Assembly: GCA_041661795.1 (NCBI GenBank)
Contig: JBAZTS010000002.1
Span: 36,263-100,262 of the forward strand
Reading direction: 5' to 3'
Length of the DNA: 64,000 bases
From: Minisyncoccota bacterium
Lineage (GTDB): Bacteria > Patescibacteriota > Minisyncoccia > UBA6257 > JAGOQP01
A program made the translations under genes and the position numbers. Position 1 is the first letter of the stretch, and each line of letters opens with the position of its first letter. The notes below the pieces were generated by a model, which did not search any database, was not told the DNA's origin, and saw only the letters and a program-made list of their open reading frames with translations. This document shows positions 15,974-62,693 of the stretch, one piece after another.

Positions 15974-16012
15974 AAATTGAACTTGATGCCTATTTAAATT
16001 ATACTTCTTTGT

Positions 16013-18334
16013 ATGTTAAGCGACAATATACGCAATTTTTGTATTATAGCCCACATAGATCACGGCAAATCTACATTGGCTGATAGGTTGCTTGAAATTA
16101 CAGGAACTATAGATAAGAGGAAGATGAAGAACCAATATCTTGATCAATTGGAATTGGAAAGAGAAAGAGGGATAACTATCAAAATGGCTCCTGTCCGCAT
16201 GCTCTATGCGCTGACTAACGCCGACTCTACGCCGACTGACGCAGACAATAAGAAATTAGATAATGCGAGTAGTCAATTATTGTATGAAGATTTAACCTAT
16301 AAAATAAGAGGAGTGTTGTTTGGCGTAAAGAAAAAAATAGGACTTGGTCATAAAGAAGTTATTTACCAAAAGGCCATAGAAGAAGAATTGACAAAAGAGA
16401 ACATACCTTTTGAAAAAGAAAAAATAATTAATATAGAACTTGATAATAAAAGTCTTGGCGTATACAGACCAGATTTTGTTATTGATAATAAAATTATATT
16501 AGAGATAAAATCTTTGCCTTTTATTGGAGATGTTGAGAAAAGGCAAGTTTGGACATATCTTAAGGGATCAGAATATAAATTGGCTTTATTAGTCAATTTC
16601 AATTCTAGAGATATTGATATTAAAAGAGTTGTGTATGATACAGCCAGAGAAATTCAGCGTGAGTCAGCGTTTAGTCAGCGTAAGTCGGCGCAGGTTGAGC
16701 AGTATGTGCTCAACCTGATAGACACTCCCGGGCATCCGGATTTTGGTTATGAAGTTTCCAGAGCTTTGGAAGCGGTTGAGGGGGCAATTTTGTTGGTTGA
16801 TGGAATGCAAGGAATACAAGCACAAACGTTATCTAATTTTTATGCTGCCAAAAAAGCCGGACTTACAATTATTGGCGCGGTTAACAAAGTGGATTTAAAT
16901 ATTCCTGACATAGATAAAGTTGTAATGGAAACAGCGGAGCTAATTGGTTGTGGGCCAGAACAAATTCATAAAATATCAGGAAGAACAGGAGAGGGAGTTC
17001 AACAGCTTTTGGGAGCAGTTATTCTTAGAATCCTACCTCCAAAAGCTGTAATTCCCAATTTCCAATTCCCAATTTCCAATTTTGGAAGGGCATTAATATT
17101 TGATTCTTTTTATGACGACCACAAAGGAATTATAGCCAGTGTCAGGGTATTTAATGGAGAATTTAATCAGTTTGATGATGTGGTTTTGGTGGCTGCTAAA
17201 GAAAAATTTAAAACAAAAGAAGTCGGATATTTTTCTCCGACCCTAAATCCTTCAAAAAGAATTTTAGAGGGAGAGATAGGTTATTTGGTTACCGGGATAA
17301 GAGACCCGTATAAAATAAAAATCGGTGACACGGTAATAGGTCACAAATCACAAGTCGCGCATCACGAATCGTATGCTTTGCCCGGATACAAAGAACCAAA
17401 GCCGGTGGTGTTTGTTTCTTTCTATCCAGACAATCCGGATGAATATGATGATTTAAAAAAATCTTTGGAAAGATTAAAGCTTAACGACTCTTCTTTTGCT
17501 TTTGAGCCGGATTTAAATGAAGTGTTGGGCAGGGGATTTAAAGGAGGATTTTTGGGAAAGCTTCATTTTGAAATAATTTCTCAGCGTCTTGAAAGAGAGT
17601 TTGGAATAAAAACAATCACATCTTTTCCTTCGGTCAGTTATAAAATAAAAACTTCTTCCAAACACTTAGCTCATCTAAAATTGGACGAAGATGGATTTTT
17701 CATAGCGTATAATCCCAAAGATATTCCTGAAGAATTTGAAAAGATATTAGAACCGATGATAAAAGTTGAAATTGTTTCATCACAAAAAATATTGGGAACA
17801 GTTTTGGGACTTAAAGATGCTTTTCGTTGGGAATACATAGAGACCCAACAATTGGGAGAAAAAGTTATTATTAAAACCAGAATGCCCTTGGCTGAGCTTA
17901 TCTCGGATTTTGACGACCAGTTAAAATCGGTTTCAGGTGGATTTGCTTCTTTTAGTTATGAAGAAGACGGCTATCAACAGGGCGATTTAATTAGGATGGA
18001 TATTTTAGTGGCAGACGAAATAGTTCCTGGGCTTTCTAGAATTCTTCCCAAAAAAGACATAGAATATCCGGCCAGGAAAATGGTTGTTCGCTTAAAGGAA
18101 GTATTGCCTCATCAGCAATTTACCCAAGCTATTCAAGCCAAAGTCGGAGGGAGAATTATAGCCAGAGAAACTATTGCGGCTTTAAGAAAAGATGTGACCG
18201 GATATCTTTATGGAGGAGACAGAACAAGAAAAATGAAACTTTGGAAAAAACAGCAAAGAGGCAAAAAGAAACTTCTTTCTATGGCCAAAGTGACCATATC
18301 TCCAGAAAACTTCAAGAAACTTCTTTCAAAATAA
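16013..18334 (+). CDS. lepA: Elongation factor 4 (LepA) interrupted in frame by a 162-codon nuclease cassette
   Basis: IIAHIDHGKSTLADRLL, RERGITIK, LIDTPGHPDF, NKVD and the C-terminal LepA domain (YGGDRTRKMKLWKKQQRGKKK). 773 aa versus about 600 aa for canonical LepA. Confidence 0.95.
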   Translation: MLSDNIRNFCIIAHIDHGKSTLADRLLEITGTIDKRKMKNQYLDQLELERERGITIKMAPVRMLYALTNADSTPTDADNKKLDNASSQLLYEDLTYKIRGVLFGVKKKIGLGHKEVIYQKAIEEELTKENIPFEKEKIINIELDNKSLGVYRPDFVIDNKIILEIKSLPFIGDVEKRQVWTYLKGSEYKLALLVNFNSRDIDIKRVVYDTAREIQRESAFSQRKSAQVEQYVLNLIDTPGHPDFGYEVSRALEAVEGAILLVDGMQGIQAQTLSNFYAAKKAGLTIIGAVNKVDLNIPDIDKVVMETAELIGCGPEQIHKISGRTGEGVQQLLGAVILRILPPKAVIPNFQFPISNFGRALIFDSFYDDHKGIIASVRVFNGEFNQFDDVVLVAAKEKFKTKEVGYFSPTLNPSKRILEGEIGYLVTGIRDPYKIKIGDTVIGHKSQVAHHESYALPGYKEPKPVVFVSFYPDNPDEYDDLKKSLERLKLNDSSFAFEPDLNEVLGRGFKGGFLGKLHFEIISQRLEREFGIKTITSFPSVSYKIKTSSKHLAHLKLDEDGFFIAYNPKDIPEEFEKILEPMIKVEIVSSQKILGTVLGLKDAFRWEYIETQQLGEKVIIKTRMPLAELISDFDDQLKSVSGGFASFSYEEDGYQQGDLIRMDILVADEIVPGLSRILPKKDIEYPARKMVVRLKEVLPHQQFTQAIQAKVGGRIIARETIAALRKDVTGYLYGGDRTRKMKLWKKQQRGKKKLLSMAKVTISPENFKKLLSK
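16208..16693 (+). mobile_element. In-frame cassette encoding a GxxExxY / PD-(D/E)XK nuclease domain, flanked by imperfect inverted word-repeat arms
   Basis: Arms 16208-16246 (gcgctgactaacgccgactctacgccgactgacgcagac) and 16655-16693 (cagcgtgagtcagcgtttagtcagcgtaagtcggcgcag) are about 80% complementary. Cargo carries GHKEVIY and PDFVI...LEIK. No stop and no in-frame ATG. Confidence 0.7.
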
Positions 18335-18362: not shown

Positions 18363-18459
18363 CTTTAGGAAAGATTTTGAGGCCATGCGGAAGACGGCGG
18401 TCTGAGCTAGAGGGATTTTTCAGCAGAAAAATACCCGTGCCTAAAAATTTTTTCTAAAG
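18363..18459 (+). repeat. 97-nt structured motif, copy A (three-helix element between lepA and the ftsB-like gene)
   Basis: 81/97 identical to the reverse complement of 46834-46930. The central 32 nt are identical. Five compensatory pair changes between the copies. Confidence 0.75.
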
Positions 18460-19477: not shown

Positions 19478-20668
19478 ATGAAATATCTTAGAAATGTCAA
19501 AATAGAAAAGATAAGAAACAAAACCTGCGTTTTAAGGTTGGGTTTGGATATAAAGGATGGTGAGTTAAAAAATTCGTTGAGAGTTATAAAATCTATCCCG
19601 ACACTCAAATTTCTATTAAAAAACGACTGCAAAGTAGTGATAATTTCACATCGAGGTAGACCTCAAGAGGGGAAAGAGGAAAGTGAAAAGAGGAAAGTGA
19701 AAAGAGAAGAAACTTTAAGATCATTTGTGGAGATTTTTGAAAAACTACTAAAAACAAAGATTAGTTTTGATGACTCTTTTGATTTTAAAAAGATGAGTGA
19801 AAAGATTAAAAAACTTCACTCAAAATCTATAGTTATTGTTGAAAATATAAGATTAGTAAAAGGAGAAAAGGATGATAACGATAAGCTAGGGAGAGAATTG
19901 GCTTCTTTGGGAAATTTTTATGTGAATGATGATTTTTCTACCAGTCACAGAAAAAACGCTTCTTTATGTGCGATAACAAAATTCACACCTTCTTATGTTG
20001 GCCTGCAGTTTGAAGAAGAAATAAAGAATTTAGACAAAGTTCTTAAAAATCAAAGGAAGCCAGTTGTTCTGATTGTAGGGGGAGTTAAATTGTCGGACAA
20101 AGTTGGCGTAATAAAAAATTTCTTAAACAAGGCAGATTATGTTTTGACCGGTGGGGGAGTTTCCAATACTTTCTTTGCTGCTAAAGAAATTCCAGTTGGT
20201 GATTCGTTAATTGATAAAGAAATGATGAAAATGGCAAAAACCTTACTTAAATCAAAAAAAATCATTTTACCCCAAGACGTTAGGATAAAAGGAAAATCTA
20301 TATTGGATATAGGGGATAAAACCATTGAAGAATATAAAAAAATAATAGAAAAAGCAGGGACTATTATTTGGGGTGGACCGTTAGGATATTTTGAGGACAA
20401 AAAATTTGCCAAAGGAACATTTGAAATAGCCAGAGCGATTTTAAAATCAAAAGCTTTTTGTGTTATTGGCGGCGGAGAAACTACAGTCGCCTTTCTTAAG
20501 GCAACTCGCGGACTTACACGGACTTCACGCAGAACTACGCGGAAAACAGTCAGCGTCAGTCAGCGTTCAGTCGGCGTTGGTCAGCGCTTGTTTCTGTCTA
20601 CTGGTGGAGGGGCAATGTTGGAATATCTAGCAGGTAAAAAATTACCGGCTTTGGAAGCGCTTAAATAA
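19478..20668 (+). CDS. pgk: Phosphoglycerate kinase (two in-frame repeat insertions)
   Basis: ISHRGRP, NIRL, VNDDFSTSHR, GGVKLSDK and LSTGGGAMLEYLAGKKLPALEAL. Extra segments are encoded at 19687-19714 and 20504-20587. Confidence 0.93.
   Translation: MKYLRNVKIEKIRNKTCVLRLGLDIKDGELKNSLRVIKSIPTLKFLLKNDCKVVIISHRGRPQEGKEESEKRKVKREETLRSFVEIFEKLLKTKISFDDSFDFKKMSEKIKKLHSKSIVIVENIRLVKGEKDDNDKLGRELASLGNFYVNDDFSTSHRKNASLCAITKFTPSYVGLQFEEEIKNLDKVLKNQRKPVVLIVGGVKLSDKVGVIKNFLNKADYVLTGGGVSNTFFAAKEIPVGDSLIDKEMMKMAKTLLKSKKIILPQDVRIKGKSILDIGDKTIEEYKKIIEKAGTIIWGGPLGYFEDKKFAKGTFEIARAILKSKAFCVIGGGETTVAFLKATRGLTRTSRRTTRKTVSVSQRSVGVGQRLFLSTGGGAMLEYLAGKKLPALEALK
20504..20587 (+). repeat. 84-nt in-frame insertion in pgk made of reverse-complementary 10-nt words (empty version of the lepA cassette arms)
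   Basis: Left words are gacttacacg gacttcacgc agaactacgc. The spacer is ggaaaac. Right words are agtcagcgtc agtcagcgtt cagtcggcgt. It encodes TRGLTRTSRRTTRKTVSVSQRSVGVGQR just before the conserved STGGG. Confidence 0.7.
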
Positions 20669-39278: not shown

Positions 39279-39309
<31 letters not shown>

Positions 39310-39325
39310 TAAAGAGCTATGAAAT

Positions 39326-39923
39326 AAAAAAAGCCCGCCGGTGTCTTCCGAGGAAGTCCTGGCGGGGTGGAACAGGTGGTGCGACCTTAGCTCACTCGGT
39401 GCTGTCGAGTTCGCTCGCCCGATATACTCTCCGGGTGATACGAGAGCTCGAATCTGCCGAGACGTGACGCGTGGTCACTTTTTGCTAAGGTTTTTTGGGG
39501 TGCTGCTCCTCTTCCTGTTCGGTACTTTCTAAGAACGGTTCCCACACCGTTCTCGCCGGCGAGCTTAGCTCGCGCAGGGTAGAGGCGCCTCCTAAAGGAG
39601 GCAAAACATGAGTACAAATTCGGAATTGGATTTTTGTGAGTTTCCGGACTCACTATCTCGTTTGGTGCACCTCCCGAGAAGTCCTTTTCCTTCCACTTAT
39701 TATTGGGCCAGTTTGAGATCAGCGGTGGACACTCAAACTGTTTGCGTGCTTTCACCGAGCTTGCCGGATTTACTCGGATCTTTGGTGAGATGGCGCAACC
39801 CCACAGTTTTGACCTCCCTCAGCTGCGCGCGCAACTGAGTTGTCAGCTCACCTAGTGACAGAGGCCCCCTTTTTGACCGTTTTTTCTTCTTGGTCCGGAA
39901 GGGTTTCCGTGCTACATTTTTAT
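39326..39923 (-). ncRNA. GC-rich ~600-nt transcription unit of unknown identity (large structured RNA candidate)
   Basis: It runs from a near-consensus promoter (39930-39957) to a strong terminator (cccgccagg...ccggcggg plus U7). It is dense in local hairpins (gcgagc-tta-gctcgc, gcctcc-taaa-ggaggc, cagtttgag...ctcaaactg, gtgagt...actcac). Only composition-type ORFs are present. Confidence 0.4.
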
Positions 39924-46833: not shown

Positions 46834-46930
46834 TTTCAGAAAAGGTTTTGGGGCACGGGTATTTTTCTGCTGAAAAATCCCTCAAGCTCAGCCCGTCGGC
46901 TTCCGCACGGTCCCAAAACCTTTTCTAAAA
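46834..46930 (-). repeat. 97-nt structured motif, copy B (ends 16 nt upstream of the DUF192 start codon)
   Basis: Its reverse complement aligns without gaps to 18363-18459 (81/97). Changes in the outer stem and the inner hairpin are compensatory. Confidence 0.75.
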
Positions 46931-54962: not shown

Positions 54963-55361
54963 ATGAGTGGGATCGCTTGGTTTTTCGAGGTGTTCGCTCT
55001 GCTGTTTTTCGTGGGGACTCTGGGCGTTGCTTTCATCGGACGCCGCATCCTCAAGGCGGAGCAGGAGTCGTCGGTTCTGATGTCTTTCCTCCAGATCTGC
55101 AGTGGAGCGCTCTTCATCTTCTACGTTTTCGGACTGGGTCAACTCATGGCTCTGTCTGGACTGGAAGGTGCAAGGGCGCCCCGGTGGCTGATTCCGGGCA
55201 CCTACATCACTCTCACCATCTTCAGCGCGTTGACTCGGCTGGCTCTTCCAAGGTGGGGCAGTGACAACAAAGCGATGCAACTCTGGAGTGTCGTCAGCGT
55301 CCTGACGTTCCTACTCGGCACGTTCTGCCTCGGGGCGTACTCGTCCAACTACTTCGAGTAG
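54963..55361 (+). CDS. GC-rich 132-aa four-TM membrane protein (compositionally foreign island A)
   Basis: AAAGGGGAA SD. Four hydrophobic helices (WFFEVFALLFFVGTLGVAFI, LQICSGALFIFYVFGLGQLMAL, GTYITLTIFSALTRLAL, LWSVVSVLTFLLGTFCLGAY). Own terminator. Confidence 0.65.
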   Translation: MSGIAWFFEVFALLFFVGTLGVAFIGRRILKAEQESSVLMSFLQICSGALFIFYVFGLGQLMALSGLEGARAPRWLIPGTYITLTIFSALTRLALPRWGSDNKAMQLWSVVSVLTFLLGTFCLGAYSSNYFE

Positions 55362-55386
55362 GTCTCCTTCTTCAGCTCTTCAACTG

Positions 55387-55420
55387 GCGGCGTCTCTCAC
55401 GAGGCGCCGCACTGCTTTTT
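55387..55420 (+). terminator. Intrinsic terminator of island A
   Basis: gcggcgtctc-tcac-gaggcgccgc followed by a T-run. Confidence 0.7.
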
Positions 55421-55467
55421 ATATGGTTATAAAATTTATATAAATTTCCCCGTCAATATAAATCCGC

Positions 55468-56607
55468 TTAATCGGTATATGTCCGTGACCGACGTAGTCG
55501 GTGGTATCGTATAGCAAATCTGTGGGCTTCGTTTCTTAACGAAAGTAATGTATTTTTAACATCTTCGGGGATTTGGCTCAAGCTGATAGGGGATTTTGAA
55601 TAGGGACTGTAAATCAATCCTTTTGTTTGTGATCTTTTATATTTCTTGCCAACATCGTTAATTAACTTACCATTACAATTAGAACGATCGTTGTAATTGT
55701 AATGGTGTGGATTATTACCCACAGATTGCAATTTGCCCACGTTTAGTTTTGCTAGAGCTATCATCGGAATCTTAATTGTTTTGAGTTGTGAGATTTGTGA
55801 TTTTCCTCCGTCAATGATAATTAAATCCGGATATTTCCATTCTTTGTGGTTAAGGCGTCTTTCTATAATTTCTTTTATTGAAGCCGGGTCATTGGCTCCT
55901 TTTATCGTTTTTATTTTAAATTTTCTGTAAAGATTTTTATTAGGTTTATTTCCGATAAACGTTACCATTGAGCCAACTGACAAACTACCTTGGGTATTGG
56001 AAATGTCGTAGCACTCAATATGTGTTTTTTCTCCATTATATAAACGAAGAAAAGTTTTTAATCCATTAACCACCTGGATGTATTTTTTTACTTCGATATT
56101 ATGAGCGGAACATAACCCTAAGTGATAATACAAGCACGGCTTTTCCGGTTTATTTTTACATGTGCGATAGGGGAATATTCTTCTGATTATCAATAAGAGA
56201 TGCTTAATCTCTTTTGCGTCTACAAACGGGCCAACAAAATCGGCTTTAAATTTTTTTGTTTGGTGTGTTAAAAGCACTCTGGGGTACTTTTCGTCGGTAA
56301 AAGCTATATACAAAAAATCCTTGTCATCTTTAAGTTCAATGTTATATTTTGGCTGATACTGTCTAACTAATTTTCTTTCTAAAATCAAGGCGTCTTTTTC
56401 AGATGGGGTTTCTATAAAATCTAAGTCAGCTACTTGTTTGTAAAAATTAATAGAAGCATTCTCTTGTCTAGAAAAATGCGATTCTATTCTCTTTTTTATA
56501 TTAATAGCTTTTCCGATATACAAAATCTTCTCATTCTTATCTTTGAAAATATATACTCCCGGTTTCTTAGGAAGTGCTTTTATCTTATTCTTCAGGATTG
56601 TTTTCAC
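55468..56607 (-). CDS. uvrC: UvrC-like excinuclease subunit, short form (GIY-YIG plus RNase-H-like endonuclease region; no UVR or HhH2 domains seen)
   Basis: PGVYIFKDKNEKILYIGKAINIKKR (GIY-YIG), IECYDISNTQG, PDLIIIDGGKSQ, IALAK and RNEAHRFAI. 379 aa versus about 600 aa canonically. Contains the palindrome at 55669-55706 in frame. Confidence 0.8.
   Translation of the reverse strand: MKTILKNKIKALPKKPGVYIFKDKNEKILYIGKAINIKKRIESHFSRQENASINFYKQVADLDFIETPSEKDALILERKLVRQYQPKYNIELKDDKDFLYIAFTDEKYPRVLLTHQTKKFKADFVGPFVDAKEIKHLLLIIRRIFPYRTCKNKPEKPCLYYHLGLCSAHNIEVKKYIQVVNGLKTFLRLYNGEKTHIECYDISNTQGSLSVGSMVTFIGNKPNKNLYRKFKIKTIKGANDPASIKEIIERRLNHKEWKYPDLIIIDGGKSQISQLKTIKIPMIALAKLNVGKLQSVGNNPHHYNYNDRSNCNGKLINDVGKKYKRSQTKGLIYSPYSKSPISLSQIPEDVKNTLLSLRNEAHRFAIRYHRLRRSRTYTD
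55669..55706. repeat. Palindromic element copy a (inside uvrC, in frame)
   Basis: accattacaattagaacgatcgttgtaattgtaatggt. On the minus strand it encodes part of NNPHHYNYNDRSNCNGKL. Confidence 0.85.
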
Positions 56608-56644
56608 TGTTTTTTTATTTTTATCCTTATCTTAATCTTAATCT

Positions 56645-56682
56645 ACCATTACATTTAGAACGATCGTTCTAAATGTAATGGT
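56645..56682. repeat. Palindromic element copy b
   Basis: accattacatttagaacgatcgttctaaatgtaatggt is a perfect 38-nt palindrome. It ends 2 nt from the stop of the 56685-57245 gene. Confidence 0.9.
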
Positions 56683-56684
56683 GG

Positions 56685-57245
56685 CTAGATTTTCTTTATA
56701 GTCCCCATTTTTCCTATTTCCAATATCTCCACGTATTCGTTTATTCTCATTTTTTCTAAATCTTCCACAAACTTTTTAGGAATTTTTATTTTTCCTATCC
56801 AGACACTTTTTTGCAACATTTCAAATCCAATATTCTTTACAGCTGATCTTAACCAAGCCCTCTTCCTTTTAAATTTTTCCGGAACATCAAAAGCTATCAA
56901 AATAACATTGTTTCCGGCTTCTTTCTTATAATCTAAAGCTGGAGATTGATTATTGGATACCCGGTTAATAAGTTTTTTGGCTTTTTTAGTAATCTTGATA
57001 ATCAACCCCTCTTTTTGTTCTATGAGTCCGTCTTTCTTAAGACGATAAATCATTACCCTATATCTGTTTCTTATTTTTTCTTTCTCTGTTTTGATAGTCT
57101 CATTTTTAGTGCCGATTCTATTTAAATTGTCTCTTAATATAGACGTTGAGCCCCAAGAGAATAAAAACGCTTCAAAAGCATTAGAGTATGTTTGTCTATC
57201 TACATTATTTAGAAAACTTATTGTTTCTCTATTTCTTGCCCTCAT
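56685..57245 (-). CDS. PaaX-like / Cas2-fold-like putative regulator (wHTH plus ferredoxin-like C-terminal domain)
   Basis: wHTH-like RVMIYRLKKDGLIEQ. The C-terminus VILIAFDVPEKFKRKRAWLRSAVKNIGFEMLQKSVWIG resembles the PaaX C-domain or Cas2 beta-alpha-beta core. Bracketed by palindrome copies b and c. Confidence 0.55.
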   Translation of the reverse strand: MRARNRETISFLNNVDRQTYSNAFEAFLFSWGSTSILRDNLNRIGTKNETIKTEKEKIRNRYRVMIYRLKKDGLIEQKEGLIIKITKKAKKLINRVSNNQSPALDYKKEAGNNVILIAFDVPEKFKRKRAWLRSAVKNIGFEMLQKSVWIGKIKIPKKFVEDLEKMRINEYVEILEIGKMGTIKKI

Positions 57246-57269
57246 AACAATATTATATCATCATTTATT

Positions 57270-57306
57270 ACCATTACAATTAGAACGATCGTTCTAATTG
57301 TAATGG
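57270..57306. repeat. Palindromic element copy c
   Basis: accattacaattagaacgatcgttctaattgtaatgg lies 24 nt upstream of the 56685-57245 gene start. Confidence 0.9.
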
Positions 57307-57417
57307 AGGGAGTATATATGATTAAGAATATTAAATAATTATCATAGAGTTATTATGATTATAGATTGATTTTATCGTTTTAATTAAAGAGTGCCTTATA
57401 AATTAGCACGGACCGCT

Positions 57418-57570
57418 TTATGGGCGGTCCGGGATGGGTGGAGCGGGTGCGGGCTTGACCACTTTGGCCACGAGGCCGATTAATATGGTCAGCATTGAAA
57501 CGGGTACTACGGTGGCGATGATGACGGACGATTCCACCACCACCAGAGACCACTTGACTAGGTAGTGCAT
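57418..57570 (-). CDS. GC-rich island B gene 4: 50-aa hydrophobic protein (not in the ORF track)
   Basis: AAAGGAGGU lies 4 nt upstream of the ATG. Product is MHYLVKWSLVVVESSVIIATVVPVSMLTILIGLVAKVVKPAPAPPIPDRP. The start overlaps the gene 3 stop. The stop codon sits in the loop of the ggaccgc...gcggtcc hairpin. Confidence 0.55.
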   Translation of the reverse strand: MHYLVKWSLVVVESSVIIATVVPVSMLTILIGLVAKVVKPAPAPPIPDRP

Positions 57571-57689
57571 TCAACCTCCTTTCTTCTGAGAATCTTGGTG
57601 ATCCACAGATAGAGGTTGTATCCTGTTTGAATAACGTGGGCCATCTTTTGGCCCAGTATTGTCGTCCGATGAAACGTTGTTGTAGACAT
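57558..57689 (-). CDS. GC-rich island B gene 3: 43-aa protein
   Basis: AAAGGAGA lies 4 nt upstream of the ATG. Product is MSTTTFHRTTILGQKMAHVIQTGYNLYLWITKILRRKEVECTT. The longer 100-aa track ORF in this frame lacks an SD. Confidence 0.45.
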   Translation of the reverse strand: MSTTTFHRTTILGQKMAHVIQTGYNLYLWITKILRRKEVECTT

Positions 57690-57703
57690 CACGTCTCCTT
57701 TGG

Positions 57704-57949
57704 TTAGGCGATGGCGCCGGGGTATTCTTCGGAGATCTTCTCGATCTCTTTTTCCTCTTTCTTCACTTGGTCTGTGAGCACAAGGAAGAAAAAGATGATG
57801 GCCATGATTCCCACAAGAGTGGCAAAGGCCCATGAAAAGCTCTTGGGGAGTTGGAACCATCGTGATAAGTGATATCCTCCAAAAGTGAGAATTACCACGG
57901 CCACGGTCGCTCCAACTTTACGGAGCAAGTTGAGTAGTCCCGGGAACAT
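57704..57949 (-). CDS. GC-rich island B gene 2: 81-aa two-TM protein with acidic/basic tail
   Basis: AAGGAGGAG lies 4 nt upstream of the ATG. TM segments are VGATVAVVILTFGGY and WAFATLVGIMAIIFFFLVL, followed by the tail KKEEKEIEKISEEY. Confidence 0.65.
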   Translation of the reverse strand: MFPGLLNLLRKVGATVAVVILTFGGYHLSRWFQLPKSFSWAFATLVGIMAIIFFFLVLTDQVKKEEKEIEKISEEYPGAIA

Positions 57950-58193
57950 TACTCTCCTCCTTTTTGGTGTACATCTTTCGAAGTTTCTCCTGTAGAGCGT
58001 TGAGCCCCGTGAAGACCAGGGCTCCGGTCAGAAACCCGATACAAGCCAACGATCCTCGGATCTCCAATCCTGGAGGCAGTGGAACTCGGTCTGCCCATAG
58101 GACCGTGAAGAAACAGGAAGCAGCAGTTGAAAGGCCAACGAAAGTGAACCAAACCACTCTTGCGATCAACTCCAGAACTTTTCCGATTTTCAT
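57918..58193 (-). CDS. GC-rich island B gene 1: 91-aa two-TM protein with charged tail
   Basis: GAGGAGGA lies 6 nt upstream of the ATG. TM segments are VVWFTFVGLSTAASCFFTVLW and LACIGFLTGALVFTGLNAL, followed by the tail QEKLRKMYTKKEES. The layout is holin-like. Confidence 0.65.
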   Translation of the reverse strand: MKIGKVLELIARVVWFTFVGLSTAASCFFTVLWADRVPLPPGLEIRGSLACIGFLTGALVFTGLNALQEKLRKMYTKKEESNVPGTTQLAP

Positions 58194-58280
58194 GCTCTGA
58201 TCCTCCTCTGTTTTTCACATTATAATAATCATTGAATTTTGTCCATGTTTGATTTAGAATAACCCTTTGGTTGGCATTTT

Positions 58281-61193
58281 ATGAAAAAAGAGAATCAATC
58301 AATAGAAATAATCGGGGCGCGTGTCCACAACTTAAAAAATGTGGATGTTTCTATACCTAAAAATAAATTGGTAGTTGTTTGCGGAGTTTCTGGTTCCGGA
58401 AAATCATCTTTAGCTTTTGATACTTTATACGAAGAGGGACAGAGAAGATATTTAGAAAGTTTGTCCTCTTATGTCAGACAGTTTTTAGGAGGATTTAAAA
58501 AACCAGATGTTGAAAAAATAATCGGCTTGTCTCCGACTATCGCCATCAACCAAAAAAGCGTTTCTTCCAATCCGCGTTCAACTGTGGGCACAATAACTGA
58601 AATTTACGATCATCTCCGTCTTCTCTTTGCTCGAGTTGGAATTCCTCATTGTCCAAATGACAACATTGTCATAACCGCTCAGACACCACAAGAAATCGCC
58701 AATAGAATTATTGACTTGGCTCATAACAACGAAATTGTTTTGCTGGCTCCAATAATCTCGGGGAAAAAGGGTCAGCACCAGGCGATTTTTGACGAGATTG
58801 AGAGGGGCGGATATTCACAGGTCAGGGTTGATGGGTATTTTTATCCCATTGCCGAAGCCAAAAATATTTCTCTGGATAAAAATAAAAAACACGATATCGA
58901 AGTTACCGTAGGTAAGTTTTTTACTGGAGTAAAAATAGATATCCAAAGAAATATATCCAAAATGGAAAGAGAGGCATTGAAAAACAAAAATAAAAAGATA
59001 GATAAGTTGATAAAAGAAGAAAAGTTAGAACTTTTAGAAAACATCAGAAAAGGACTGGCCATGGGGCAGGGAAATATTGTTGCTCATACCAAGGGGAAGG
59101 ATTTTTCCTTTTCCGAGAATTATTCCTGTTCTAAATGCGGATTTTCTTTACCCAAAATTGAACCCAGAACTTTTTCATTCAACAGTCCTTTTGGAGCTTG
59201 TAAAAATTGTCAGGGATTGGGAACTAAACTTGAAATAGATTTGGATTTGATAATCAACCCGGAAATCTCTTTGGAAGCGGGAGCTATAAAGCCCTGGTTT
59301 TCTTTAAGCCGTATGGGAAGAAGAGCTCTTGGCGCCAATTGGCAGAGATTTGTTACTGAGACCATTATTAGGGATTCTGGGCTGTCCCCAAGAACTCCTT
59401 TTGGAAAACTTCCCAAAGAAGTCCAGGATAAAATTTTATATGGTGATAAAGAAAATTATACTCATCTTAAAGACGGCGATTGGGAAGGAAAAACTTTATT
59501 TGAGGGAATTATTCCTCGCTTGGAGCGACTTTATTACGAAACTGAATCTGATTTTATCAGACAGGAACTTTCTAAATACATGCTTGAAAAAACCTGTCCC
59601 GTTTGTAATGGGTCGCGTTTAAGAGAAGAAGCATTGGCGGTAAGAGTGGGAGGAAAGAACATTTCTGAATTGACTTCAATGGCGGTTTTGGATTTTGTTA
59701 GTTTTTGCCAAAAACATATTTATGAAAAAATGTCGGAAAATCAAAAAACGGTTGCTGTTTCAATAATCAAAGAAATTTCCACTAAATCAAATTTTTTAAT
59801 TAACGTTGGTTTGGAATATATGAACTTGGGAAGGTCAGCGACTACTTTGTCAGTAGGAGAAAATCAAAGAATCCGCCTGGCTACCCAGTTGGGTTCTGGA
59901 TTGTCTGGAGTGATTTATGTTTTAGACGAACCGACTATTGGGCTTCATCCTCGCGACACTGACCGTCTCATAAAAACATTAAAAGAACTTAGAGATTTAA
60001 ATAATACCGTGATTGTGGTGGAACATGATGAGAGGGTTATAGAAAGCGCCGATTGGGTTATTGAAATTGGACCATTAGCCGGAGAAGAAGGTGGCAAGGT
60101 TGTTTTTGAAGGAACGCCATCAGATTTGAAAAAATCAAAAACGTTAACTGGATTATATTTTGCCGGCAAGAAAAAAGCGCAATCGGGACTTTCTAAAAAT
60201 AATTCTGAAAATAAAGAATTTATAAAACTGTATGGCGCTTCACAGTTTAATTTAAAAAACATAAATCTTTCCATTCCTTTAAAAAAATTTGTCTGTGTGG
60301 CAGGAGTTTCGGGCTCGGGTAAAAGCACGTTAATGTTAGATGTTTTTGCCAAGGCCCTTCAGAAAGAAGTTCTTAGGATGAGCGTGGCTGTAGGTGAATA
60401 TAAAAAACTTGAGGGGGAAAGAAATATAGACAAAGTGGTTATTATTGACCAAAGTCCTATCGGCAGAACCCCTCGTTCCAATCCGGCTACTTATACGGGA
60501 ATTTTTACTCCCATTAGACAATTTTTCACTCGCTTGGAAGAGTCGCAGATAAGGGGATATGGGCCATCATATTTTAGTTTCAACGTTAAGCCGGGAAGAT
60601 GTGAGGCCTGCAGAGGGGAAGGATTTAAAAAGGTGGAGATGTATTTTTTGCCGGATATGTACGTAGAGTGTGAAGTTTGTAAAGGCACCAGATTTTCTCC
60701 CGAGGTTTTGGATGTTAAATATAAAAACAAAAACATTGCTGATGTTCTTTCTATGAGCGTTAAGGAAGCGCTGGCGTTTTTTCACCAGTTTCCTTTTATT
60801 GGCGATAAGTTAAAAATTCTTGATGAAATCGGTCTTGGATATATGAAACTGGGACAGCCGGCGACAACTTTGTCGGGAGGAGAAGCTCAAAGGATAAAAC
60901 TTTCCGATGAACTTGCCAAAAGAGCTACAGGAAGGACTATTTATATTTTAGACGAACCGACTGTGGGACTTCACTTTGAAGACACAAAAAAACTTTTATA
61001 TATTTTGCGCTCGTTGGTTCTAAAAGGTAATACGGTTTTAGTTATAGAACACAATCCTGATGTTTTAAAAGAATCGGACTGGATTATTGAACTTGGTCCC
61101 GAAGGTGGAGACAAGGGAGGAAAAATAATTTTTGAGGGAACACTGGAAGAGATAAAAAAGAAAAAAACAATGACGGGGAAGTATTTAATATGA
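58281..61193 (+). CDS. uvrA: Excinuclease ABC subunit A
   Basis: Two ABC modules ([15 protein letters not shown] and [10 protein letters not shown]; LSGGEAQR signatures) plus zinc modules (CSKCGF...[14 protein letters not shown]...CEVCKG). Confidence 0.97.
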
Positions 61194-61411
61194 AGATAAT
61201 AATCATCGTAAAACCAAATAAAAAAGAAAATAAGGTTGTGAAAATAGGAGAGAACATTTTTGAAATTTATACGAATCAACCGGCTAAAGAAAATAAAGCC
61301 AATTTGGATATTATTCAACAAATGTCCAAGTATTTTAAAGTATCAAAATCAAAGGTTTCTATATCTTCCGGATTAAAGTCAAAGAAGAAAATTTTGGAAA
61401 TAAATATATAA
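61190..61411 (+). CDS. DUF167 (YggU-like) protein
   Basis: IIVKPNKKENKV...NQPAKENKANLDII...SKVSISSGLKSKKKILEI matches the DUF167 pattern. Confidence 0.8.
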   Translation: MKIIIIVKPNKKENKVVKIGENIFEIYTNQPAKENKANLDIIQQMSKYFKVSKSKVSISSGLKSKKKILEINI

Positions 61412-61941
61412 AAAAAGGGGGCTCCCGGTGTTGCTGGGAGCCCAAAGTGCGGTAAGGAGGTCAATGTACGATGCGGTGCCTGCCGTGCGTCGCTTCGCTC
61501 GTTCGGGTCTTGGTGGTTCAGATCAGGGCCAGTCGTGCCCGAAAACTTAACTTTCTGGCCCATTGCTTCTCGGCACGCATGGTTTCTCCTTGCATGGATT
61601 TTTGGTCCACGCAGCTCTGCCCTCAGCGCTTGACGGTGGCCTCGTCGTTGGTGCGGTGGTTGTTCTGACGCTGTTGCATGGGATTTCTCCTCGCGTGAAC
61701 GTCGTCGGTTGTTGGTGCTAGCTATGGCTCAAGTCAAGCTTTCTTTTCGGTGAGCTTGACGAGCAGTGCTAGCGCCTGTTCTGGGTTTCGTTTTTTATCG
61801 GTATAACCTTCACAAGGTTATACCAGGGTTTCCTTCCTGATTGGCGGTCAAGAAGGTTGTTTAATCATCCAGCATTGTCCTAACTAACGGAACGGCGGTT
61901 CGACGTCCACGTGCATCGCTTTCCTCCTTATGTAGTTTACT
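61410..61941 (-). ncRNA. GC-rich ~530-nt transcription unit (large structured RNA and/or SD-led micro-ORF cassette)
   Basis: Promoter at 61948-61976. Terminator gggctccc-agcaacac-cgggagcccc plus U7. The 5' uaaggagg...cgaugc can pair with the 3' gcaucg...ccuccuua. It contains an 11-bp GUGA-capped hairpin (ggtataacctt gtga aggttatacc). No ORF over 25 aa has a plausible start. Confidence 0.4.
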
Positions 61942-61947
61942 TATTTC

Positions 61948-61976
61948 AGGATAAAACAAAAACGGCTATTAGTCAA
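61948..61976 (-). promoter_or_regulatory. Sigma-70-type promoter TTGACT-17-TATCCT for the GC-rich unit
   Basis: The minus strand reads ttgactaatagccgtttttgttttatcct, located just after the SDR stop codon. Confidence 0.45.
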
Positions 61977-61991
61977 ATATTTTTGTGAAAC

Positions 61992-62693
61992 TTACTTTTG
62001 ATGCTGAAACACATCTATTATCAAATTTTGGTCGGGGATAATTTCTTTTTTTAATGCTTTGACAATGACCTGAGCAACTTGATTTGGAGTATGTTTTGGT
62101 TCATGGTCGGGAAAACATGTTTTAAACATTCCAGTATCGGTTGAGCCGGGAGTAATTGTAAAAACGTCTATATTGTATTTGGAAAGTTCGTCTTTTAACG
62201 ACTGAGAAAGATTTATAATCGCCGCTTTAGTTAGAGAATAAATAGAGAGTCCTTCAATCCCGTAAAATCCGGCTCCAGAAGAAATATTGACGATTAATCC
62301 GGATTTCTTTTCTTTCATAATTTCAAGAACCCTTTTTATAACATTTAAAGTTCCTTTGATGTTAACGTCTATAATAAAATTCCAGTCAGGATAATCGGTT
62401 TCTTCAAAATTTTTATTCTGGGCAACAGCCGCATTGTTTACTAAAATATCTATACTTCCGAATTTATCAATCGTTTCTTCAATAACTTTTTCAACATCTT
62501 CTTTTGTTCTTATATCGCCTTGAGTAACTAAAAAATTGGGATTTTTTAAAATCACTTCCGTATCCAAATTATCGGGGATATTAATGGAAACCGTAGAAAC
62601 TTTACATCCTTGGTCAAGCAAGAGTTTGGCTGTTTCAAGACCTATTCCCGACGTTGCTCCAGTTATAAATACAACTTTATTTTTTATGTCCAT
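61992..62693 (-). CDS. SDR family oxidoreductase
   Basis: TGATSGIG, NNAA and the S...YSLTKAA catalytic triad region. Confidence 0.9.
   Translation of the reverse strand: MDIKNKVVFITGATSGIGLETAKLLLDQGCKVSTVSINIPDNLDTEVILKNPNFLVTQGDIRTKEDVEKVIEETIDKFGSIDILVNNAAVAQNKNFEETDYPDWNFIIDVNIKGTLNVIKRVLEIMKEKKSGLIVNISSGAGFYGIEGLSIYSLTKAAIINLSQSLKDELSKYNIDVFTITPGSTDTGMFKTCFPDHEPKHTPNQVAQVIVKALKKEIIPDQNLIIDVFQHQK

Follow-up and report, generated by a model that had tools for sequence, protein, structure and literature searches.

Introduction

Why should the gene for a translation factor contain, in one uninterrupted reading frame, a complete nuclease domain enclosed by inverted repeats? The question is raised by lepA, which encodes LepA (elongation factor 4, EF4), in a 64,000-nt stretch of contig JBAZTS010000002.1 of a Minisyncoccota bacterium belonging to the Patescibacteria (assembly GCA_041661795.1, positions 36,263 to 100,262 of the forward strand). 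This stretch is referred to here as the window; coordinates are those of the window, and all lepA and pgk features lie on its + strand. A sequence-only reading had proposed that the LepA G domain is interrupted in frame by a stem-flanked GxxExxY cassette and had left two options, a tolerated domain insertion or an element removed at the RNA level. Matches to the TIGR01393 and TIGR04256 profiles, together with the paired arms, bear out the interruption. The cassette consists of a left arm of tandem 10-11-nt words, a 125-aa PD-(D/E)XK nuclease, and an inverted right arm, and it is probably one copy of a family of selfish, mobile cassettes that operate at the DNA level in Patescibacteria and are translated straight through. 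Its terminal ~9 nt are complementary to the flanking host sequence and covary with it, a feature new to this analysis.

Results

The interrupted lepA gene

The host gene is an open reading frame (ORF) of 773 aa (16013..18334), as the sequence-only reading had stated. It matches the TIGR01393 lepA profile with 645.5 bits against a cut-off of 533.9, aligned as two stretches; Pfam and NCBIfam searches further found the LepA_C (PF06421, E 8e-32), EFG_C, and EFG_III domains, and the G1-G4 motifs are preserved, with invariant DTPGH and NKxD columns in the alignment. The extra sequence lies after ...ITIKMAPVRMLY and before YVLNLIDTPGH, that is, in the beta2-beta3 hairpin, which confirms its earlier placement between the G2 and G3 motifs. 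Positions 16208-16693 comprise 162 codons with zero stops and zero Met, so that the description of a 486-nt segment lacking both a stop and an in-frame ATG stands. The true end of the segment is 16699, two codons past 16693: V228-E229 (16694-16699) are part of the element, and the host sequence consequently restarts at about Q230/Y231. To call the host an essential-type gene was an overstatement, as model bacteria can do without LepA.

The Prokaryotic Genome Annotation Pipeline (PGAP) gives several LepA proteins with the insert the name 'GxxExxY protein'. The NCBI record of the exact same protein (P0110) has 711 aa, a length that fits a start at Met63, which would lose the G1 motif. A tandem repeat inside lepA (AATTCCCAATTTCC, 2.3 copies, 17050-17082) encodes AVIPNFQFPISNFG where a linker joins the G domain to domain II; at this position relatives have other palindromic fillers. 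AT-rich fillers of the 'EIRNSKLEI' type are found at the beta2-beta3 site of loci L029 and L059.

The cargo nuclease

The nuclease domain, here termed the cargo, occupies 16274..16648 (residues 88-212) and contains neither a start nor a stop codon. It covers the GxxExxY profile TIGR04256 fully (1-116/116; E 2.2e-31, 108.6 bits against a cut-off of 35) and matches PF13366 (PDDEXK_3) at E 1.3e-29 (103.4 bits against a cut-off of 22). These end-to-end matches refute the possibility that the cargo has no significant profile match and establish the intact small nuclease domain, with its GxxExxY and PD...ExK motifs, that had been recognized by eye. The motifs G112-H-K-E115-V-I-Y118, P153-D154 (RPDF), and E164-I-K166 coincide with invariant columns of an 80-member family alignment. 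The invariant Glu of GxxExxY, E115, is encoded at 16355..16357; the PD...ExK catalytic core, D154 ... E164-I-K166, delimited from the family and nested-copy alignments, spans 16472..16510; and Q178-x-x-x-Y182 spans 16544..16558, where alignment column Q91 is nearly invariant and column Y95 invariant. E115, D154, E164, K166, Q178, and Y182 are family-invariant positions that are conserved to at least 95% among 65 LepA-nested copies. We take the QxxxY motif (Q178, Y182) to be typical of nucleases of the RecB/Cas4/lambda-exonuclease type. The cargo has the PD-(D/E)XK (restriction-endonuclease-like) fold, and fold searches gave Cas4 as the nearest relative. Neither the PHROGs nor the PADLOC library contained a match for it. 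Assignment as a junction resolvase was rejected as too weak, with only T7 endonuclease I in the PDB sequence search (E 0.85) and Phage_endo_I in Pfam (E 0.009). The literature search found no biochemical data on the nuclease activity of any GxxExxY protein, and the activity of PDDEXK_3 is listed as 'Unknown' (PMC3424549).

AlphaFold2 (AF2) was run on the full protein with a 104-sequence alignment and gave a predicted local distance difference test score (pLDDT) of 85.4. In the model the LepA core is normal, resembling 9a76, 5j8b, and 3cb4 in a structure search of the PDB, and neither strand beta2 (59-66) nor strand beta3 (230-237) is disrupted. Residues 88-210 of the cargo are confidently folded, and the arm-encoded stretches 69-87 and 211-227 have pLDDT < 50, which indicates that the arms encode flexible tethers. 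The best explanation of the model is that LepA would be made with a folded nuclease, its catalytic residues intact, held on two disordered arm-encoded tethers. Peptides distinctive of such a nested read-through protein would be MLYALTNADSTPTDADNK, ESAFSQR, and SAQVEQYVLNLIDTPGHPDFGYEVSR, in addition to those of the cargo.

The arms and the long stem

The left arm (16208..16246) contains 3.7 tandem 10-nt words (CGCYGACTNA) and encodes ALTNADSTPTDAD; together with the spacer that separates it from the cargo (16247..16273), it specifies the N-terminal disordered tether. The right arm (16654..16690), inverted relative to the left, contains 3.6 tandem 10-11-nt words (TCAGCGTNAG) and encodes QRESAFSQRKSA, part of the C-terminal tether. 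Tandem Repeats Finder delimits the two repeats as 16209-16246 (10-nt unit) and 16654-16690, with these same copy numbers. The word GACTNACGC has six copies in the window, where 0.24 would be expected; four lie in the lepA arms and one in pgk. Complementarity between the arms amounts to 35/44, and their duplex has an energy of -55.3 kcal/mol, compared with -28.8 +/- 4.6 when the right arm is shuffled (z -5.7). In the minimum free energy (MFE) fold of the whole 521-nt region (z -4.95), the arms form the closing stem, in the nested register 16207-16242 with 16657-16692, and the internal loops of this stem are symmetric, 1x1 and 2x2. The earlier proposal of inverted arms built from ~10-nt words is thus upheld by the repeats and their complementarity, with the nested pairing register as given here.

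Complementarity between the element's ends and the host

At the left junction, a quasi-palindrome (16193..16215) pairs the host codons V61-R62-M63 (GTCCGCATG) with the first codons of the element. In the MFE fold, CGCAT at 16196-16200 pairs with ATGCG at 16206-16210, and GTC pairs with GAC across a 2-nt bulge; the palindrome is degenerate in this lepA copy, and in relatives it is a perfect 9/9 covarying complement. The right junction palindrome (16691..16717) has perfect 11-bp arms, 16691-16701 and 16707-16717, around a 5-nt loop, the element's end CAGGTTGAGCA (Q-V-E-Q) being the perfect reverse complement of host TGCTCAACCTG (V-L-N-L).

The same relation recurs at the beta2-beta3 site of other loci, where the element's last 9 nt (Q-V/I-E) are the exact reverse complement of the L/F-N-L codons of the host downstream, and its opening codons (H-P/S/A-D/H/N) are the reverse complement of host V-R-M codon variants. 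A 9/9 match was found at the right junction of 12 of 26 filled loci versus 3.1% of cross-locus pairs (permutation p <= 1e-4), and at the left junction of 5 of the 26 versus 1.4% (p 6e-4). There are seven covarying right-junction haplotypes, among them CAGGTTGAG / CTCAACCTG, CAAGTTGAA / TTCAACTTG, and CAAATTGAG / CTCAATTTG; the terminal ~9 nt thus covary with synonymous variants of the adjacent host codons. Filled and empty alleles differ only in the 9 nt that pair with the element's ends, with no longer co-conversion tract, and beyond those 9 nt the flanks show no likeness to other filled alleles. The codons TTA and CTA, the reverse complement of either of which is a stop codon, are avoided in the host L-N-L codons of filled alleles. 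Junction loops vary among loci (6, 8, 9, 14, and 15 nt), and the frames differ too. The site in RecG likewise has junction palindromes, with three covarying left-junction variants. Palindromes that are perfect through the centre of the loop, in the manner of P-nucleotides, occur in a few loci, about as often as Ile/Val-Tyr codon choice would lead one to expect, and inspection by eye revealed no convincing target-site duplications.

Occurrence and exchange at the lepA site

A reading that competes with mobility holds that the segment is an old, vertically inherited, lineage-specific domain of LepA with a function for the host, for example, as a ribosome-tethered nuclease, the complementarity of its arms being incidental or a leftover. 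We regard this as unlikely, although the catalytic residues are conserved in nested copies and the junction peptide SAQVE, conserved at the outer boundary, recurs among filled loci. In a comparison of 80 LepA loci from related GTDB species, 14 hold a GxxExxY insert of 163-200 aa at exactly this beta2-beta3 site, ~55 have an empty loop of 16-22 aa, and ~10 contain short palindromic fillers. The filled loci fall in at least seven places on the LepA core tree, beside empty nearest neighbours, and the window's own LepA clade (L010-L015, 72-74% identical) is empty at the site. This orthologue alignment refutes the notion that the segment is universal in the clade.

Host and cargo are also nearly uncoupled: among 2080 pairs of full-length, insert-bearing LepA, identity in the host core hardly correlates with identity in the cargo (Spearman 0.05, Mantel r 0.12). 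Hosts that are 91-92% identical (P0150 versus P0195 and P0200) bear cargos that are 52-54% identical and have different arms, so that whole cassettes differ, and hosts that are 58% identical may have cargos that are 85% identical. The types of arm word (..GAC.., ..GAA.., ..GAT.., ACAGACA) track the cargo clade and not the host clade. Decay forms are found at the beta2-beta3 site, including a truncated cargo (P0163) and cargo-less hairpins (P0113, L040).

The site itself changes within the gene. The best-scoring cargo matches, P0112 (74%) and P0113 (70%), are LepA proteins from syntenic relatives, with a core 69% identical and a right arm nearly identical to those of the window, but their cargo sits in a loop of LepA domain II, GDT..ALPGYKEP (L089 5001-7469 for P0113; L090 4014-6347 for P0112; also P0117), rather than at beta2-beta3, where P0113 has only a cargo-less hairpin. 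In all, the P0113 LepA contains one cassette and approximately four cargo-less hairpins. A third cassette site in lepA is seen in P0220, in the C-terminal half, after SIAYRV at about residue 400. Occupation of the same site, patchy presence, uncoupled phylogenies of element and host, and degenerate copies together constitute a signature of the homing-endonuclease type.

An assembly or binning artefact, such as a chimeric join at the repeats, has a next to negligible probability. On short contigs, many of the related entries are partial proteins that stop close to the right arm, from which it follows that the repeats do break assemblies. However, the identical protein (P0110) occurs on contigs of up to 156 kb, the frame and the domain are intact, and a whole-database search recovered at least 67 clusters of full-length LepA with PF13366 from NCBI, ENA, JGI, and Logan assemblies. 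That independent assemblies share the architecture refutes the artefact that the sequence-only reading had allowed for.

The cassette outside lepA

The second host gene in the window is pgk (19478..20668), whose ORF has 396 aa, compared with 373-375 aa for phosphoglycerate kinase (PGK) in the syntenic relatives L089 and L090. In frame and ahead of the STGGGA motif, it contains a cargo-less hairpin of the lepA-arm family (20503..20590; peptide TRGLTRTSRRTTRKTVSVSQRSVGVGQR) that is absent from the pgk of the syntenic relatives. Different hairpin-type fillers occupy the same pgk loop in L033 and L054, and a further in-frame repeat filler may be represented by a perfect tandem repeat (AAAGAGGAAAGTGA, 2.4 copies, 19673-19706) in the N-terminal part of pgk.

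The search for arm words beside other GxxExxY genes, which had been suggested earlier, was positive: free-standing GxxExxY genes, with their own start and stop, are flanked by the same kind of arms at L081, L084, L086, and L090. Twenty-five columns are invariant across six arms taken from lepA, pgk, and the free-standing gene of L081. The arm words of L090 are AT-rich (TGCTAAT / ATTAGCA), indicating that the sequence of the words varies and the architecture is kept. Free-standing GxxExxY genes adjoin pgk or lepA in relatives (L090 8662-9060; L001 5400-5756; L071 6733-7047). Small GIY-YIG nuclease ORFs also recur near cassette-bearing genes (L088 6578-6672, L089 8662-8913, L093 1496-1798), upstream of pgk or directly after a family 2 glycosyltransferase (GT2) gene with a nested cassette.

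A search with the cargo returned 5840 representative clusters at E <= 1e-3, and most of the top-scoring matches are long proteins in which the GxxExxY domain is internal; among the matches listed, 41 domains are nested and 47 are N-terminal. Pfam identified the nested hosts as RecG (at least seven clusters), a DEAD helicase, GatB, RtcB, leucyl-tRNA synthetase (LeuRS), asparagine synthase, transketolase, glycosyltransferases (GT2 and GT4/GT1), and Wzy_C, and every such non-LepA host shows the same arm-encoded peptides on both sides of the cargo. The cargos in RecG, GatB, RtcB, LeuRS, GT2, and GT4 are 60-81% identical to LepA-nested ones, for which the LepA-to-LepA mean is 58%. Those in asparagine synthase and transketolase are 51-62% identical to the LepA-nested copies and about equally close to free-standing genes. 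In the cargo tree, the cargos of LepA, RecG, GT2, GT4, GT1, GatB, RtcB, Wzy, and LeuRS are mixed in one clade, with the GatB cargo as the sister of a LepA cargo and the asparagine synthase and transketolase cargos outside. A LepA-specific cargo clade, obtained in the first sample, was rejected when exhaustive sampling mixed in the cargos of other hosts. Two further groups were noted among the hits P0253-P0321 and P0272-P0364: a large group of 430-530-aa proteins with GxxExxY at the N terminus of a partner region, and another of ~260-277-aa proteins with two tandem GxxExxY domains.

These comparisons bear directly on the idea of an old LepA domain. The grouping of LepA-nested cargos in the first sample had favoured it, but under wider sampling that clade dissolves into the mixed nested clade; cassettes of this type occupy three different sites in lepA and are found in over 10 unrelated protein families; and the same arms surround free-standing genes and make up cargo-less hairpins. 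Together with the truncated remnants, the empty nearest neighbours, and the uncoupling of host and cargo, the change of site and the shared arms indicate that the segment is not an old fixed domain. The best reading of these sequence comparisons is that it would be a selfish mobile element rather than an adaptation of LepA.

Action at the level of DNA, RNA, or protein

Stem-enclosed segments within genes can also be elements of RNA, and the sequence-only reading had offered removal at the RNA level as an alternative. In such an intervening sequence, the stem or the junction hairpins would direct excision by RNase III, or by an endonuclease plus RtcB, and normal LepA would be made. The long closing stem is significant (z -4.95), the pairing between exon and element at both junctions covaries with host codons in a way reminiscent of intron guide pairings, and the otherwise intact lepA of one relative (L088) has a stop codon in frame at the junction. 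Nevertheless, we judge RNA-level removal to be quite improbable. All other nested copies examined, which come from more than 10 host families, can be read through both arms and the cargo without a stop, and in none does the cargo bring a start or stop with it; efficient removal from the RNA would exert no selection for such an open frame. Mismatches in the arms are mostly transversions (100), with 21 top-strand and 33 bottom-strand G.U pairs, and this lack of an mRNA-strand wobble excess led us to drop an RNA-structure reading of the arms. RNase III cleavage by itself would sever the mRNA. A scan of the window at Rfam gathering thresholds found only RNase P and two tRNAs, with no group I or II intron and no rRNA, and a permissive scan of 16000-16900 yielded only a chance miRNA match (E 0.19). 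A group I or II intron was rejected, with no ribozyme covariance model matching, and a bulge-helix-bulge splicing motif was ruled out, given that the internal loops of the stem are all symmetric.

Excision after translation, as with an intein, is very improbable. The segment does resemble inteins in being a nuclease-bearing, in-frame insert between conserved motifs of a conserved protein, but Pfam and NCBIfam revealed no Hint or intein domain in the LepA protein. The insert begins with Ala66 and ends with ...A-Q-V-E, followed by Q-Y, so that a Cys/Ser/Thr nucleophile and a His-Asn pair are both absent, and the flanks of the nuclease are disordered, low-complexity peptides derived from DNA repeats. 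Of the two options offered earlier, the tolerated in-frame domain insertion is thus favoured, with the frame open in all copies but L088, no internal start or stop, and a compatible AF2 model, and RNA-level removal is disfavoured. The best explanation for the hairpin arms and the flank-complementary termini is that they act in DNA, not in mRNA.

Other features of the window

Positions 39300-39900 form a GC-rich island (45% versus ~35%) that contains only small ORFs and whose + strand folds with z -4.5; searches there for Rfam families, tRNAs, and tmRNA gave nothing, and the island may be an undescribed structured RNA. Two GC-rich segments of ~45 nt, 18375-18418 and 46867-46926, look like reverse-complement copies of one intergenic repeat. 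The region 55000-62000, with a GC content of 0.39-0.44 versus ~0.35 elsewhere and several long GC-rich runs, may be foreign DNA.

Discussion

Our analysis suggests that the lepA segment belongs to a cassette family that would be gained, swapped, truncated to cargo-less hairpins, and lost, and that would move both between sites within one gene and between unrelated genes, with selection retaining only the in-frame copies in permissive loops. The nuclease might make or process breaks, either at hairpin or cruciform DNA or with such DNA as the guide, or it might act on the vacant site, and the cassette could then be copied in through break repair or single-strand template switching. The arms would serve a twofold role, as handles for recombination or template switching and as linker-coding sequence. 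The ~9-nt termini may be target-pairing 'guides' for insertion or excision, which would explain both the fixed outer boundary and the covariation, or they may be products of fold-back (quasi-palindrome) synthesis, which would explain perfect complementarity without selection. That the cassettes represent a distinct class of mobile element, retained in both mRNA and protein and finding or keeping its site by DNA-guided, programmable targeting via the ~9-nt flank pairing and a 125-aa Cas4-like nuclease, is a bolder proposal that we put forward tentatively, as possible rather than probable.

Several points weigh against the proposal of a mobile, translated cassette. Mobility is deduced from comparisons only, no transposase or integrase lies within the cassette, and the literature reports neither an activity nor a target for any GxxExxY nuclease. 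No junction palindromes were apparent at the domain II site of lepA, at the GT2 site, or at the right junction of some RecG copies. As a test of covariation, pairing of arms within a locus (-46 kcal/mol) was not separated from pairing across loci (-38 kcal/mol), owing to the CGC-rich words common to all arms. The conserved SAQVE peptide and the near-monophyly of the nested cargos are also compatible with one old insertion that had its interior exchanged later. Read-through translation would be the simplest reading, and it rests on the preserved frame. At L088 (3660-3700; P0003), an in-frame TAA directly follows the right arm (..SAS*ECILNLIDTPGH), so that gene calling splits this lepA into two ORFs (223 and 491 aa); this TAA could reflect a pseudogene, an error, a by-product of palindrome copying, or removal of the segment before translation.

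The cassettes disclose a blind spot of annotation, as many housekeeping proteins of Patescibacteria hold a folded nuclease, and pipelines misname such proteins or misplace their starts. The GxxExxY family, with its 5840 representative clusters and no known function, gains a testable context in the hairpin-armed cassette. If mobility is confirmed, selfish nuclease genes would have a third lifestyle besides introns and inteins, one without RNA or protein splicing, made possible by palindromic DNA with one open frame that specifies hydrophilic, disordered linkers. The covarying, flank-complementary termini point to base-pairing target recognition or to strong templated mutation at hairpins, readings that both bear on genome engineering and on mutational mechanisms. 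In addition, the elements map insertion-tolerant loops in LepA, RecG, GatB, RtcB, PGK, and other proteins.

The sequence-only reading knew of no described class of such cassettes, and our search agrees, although the segment proved to be one member of a large family and not a one-off: the literature on GxxExxY/PF13366, in-frame palindromic elements, intervening sequences, and insertions in the candidate phyla radiation (CPR) does not describe the architecture, and on the family itself it says no more than 'function unknown'. The proteins are already in public databases, some as 'GxxExxY protein', which means that the sequences are known and the element class is apparently undescribed. None of the known systems that we compared combines all features of the cassette. 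Like inteins with a homing endonuclease, it is an in-frame selfish nuclease in conserved proteins, helicases and other nucleic-acid enzymes among them, that is patchily distributed and is repeatedly gained, degraded, and lost, but inteins rely on Hint splicing with junction nucleophiles and on LAGLIDADG or HNH enzymes, whereas the cassette has a PD-(D/E)XK nuclease and no sign of protein excision. The PD-(D/E)XK homing endonuclease I-Ssp6803I, unlike the cargo, resides in a group I intron. Compared with Cas4, RecB, and lambda exonuclease, the cargo has only 125 aa, no Fe-S cluster module, and no CRISPR context.

Ribosomal RNA intervening sequences (IVS) with an ORF share with the cassette a long stem around a small ORF in a conserved gene and are likewise regarded as selfish. 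They differ in lying in rRNA, in being excised by RNase III without religation, and in having a four-helix-bundle ORF with its own start, whereas the cassette has an mRNA host, a continuous frame, and no RNA signature that we could find. One example is the 23S IVS of Coxiella burnetii, which encodes S23p (PMC4990558).

The combination of a flanked enzyme with enzyme-less hairpins recalls REPIN-RAYT systems. In these, an enzyme gene lies between inverted repeats that are also present genome-wide as enzyme-less hairpin doublets; the RAYTs are HUH/Y1 transposases, the REPINs are extragenic, and neither is translated within a host protein. The cargo, a PD-(D/E)XK enzyme, is no HUH/Y1 transposase of the REPIN/RAYT or IS200/IS605 kind. 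Foldback transposons are similar in their long inverted termini of short tandem repeats and in their many copies without a central coding region; they differ in being eukaryotic, in the DDE-type transposase of their autonomous forms, and in not being nested in frame. In IS200/IS605 elements and group II introns, as in the cassette, element-internal segments pair and covary with the flanking target. The former use 4-nt non-canonical DNA guides and a Y1 transposase, and the latter use RNA pairings of exon-binding and intron-binding sites (EBS/IBS), a ribozyme, and a reverse transcriptase. The cassette has no such enzyme and instead carries a ~9-nt Watson-Crick complement at both ends, which forms local hairpins with the flank.

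Rickettsia palindromic elements (RPEs) are palindromic selfish DNA found in frame in unrelated housekeeping genes and translated as surface peptides (PMC10969869). The cassette family shares this feature as a palindromic repeat family in frame in unrelated housekeeping genes, and the likeness in architecture is plain for the cargo-less hairpins of pgk (20503-20590) and of the P0113 LepA, which behave alike. RPEs, however, measure ~150 bp, contain no enzyme, and are restricted to Rickettsia, and their coding of a short peptide only is matched by the cargo-less copies and not by the cassette with its complete 125-aa nuclease. Unlike RPEs, the cassette has arms of tandem 10-11-nt words, often around a complete nuclease domain, and termini that are the reverse complement of the host flanks.

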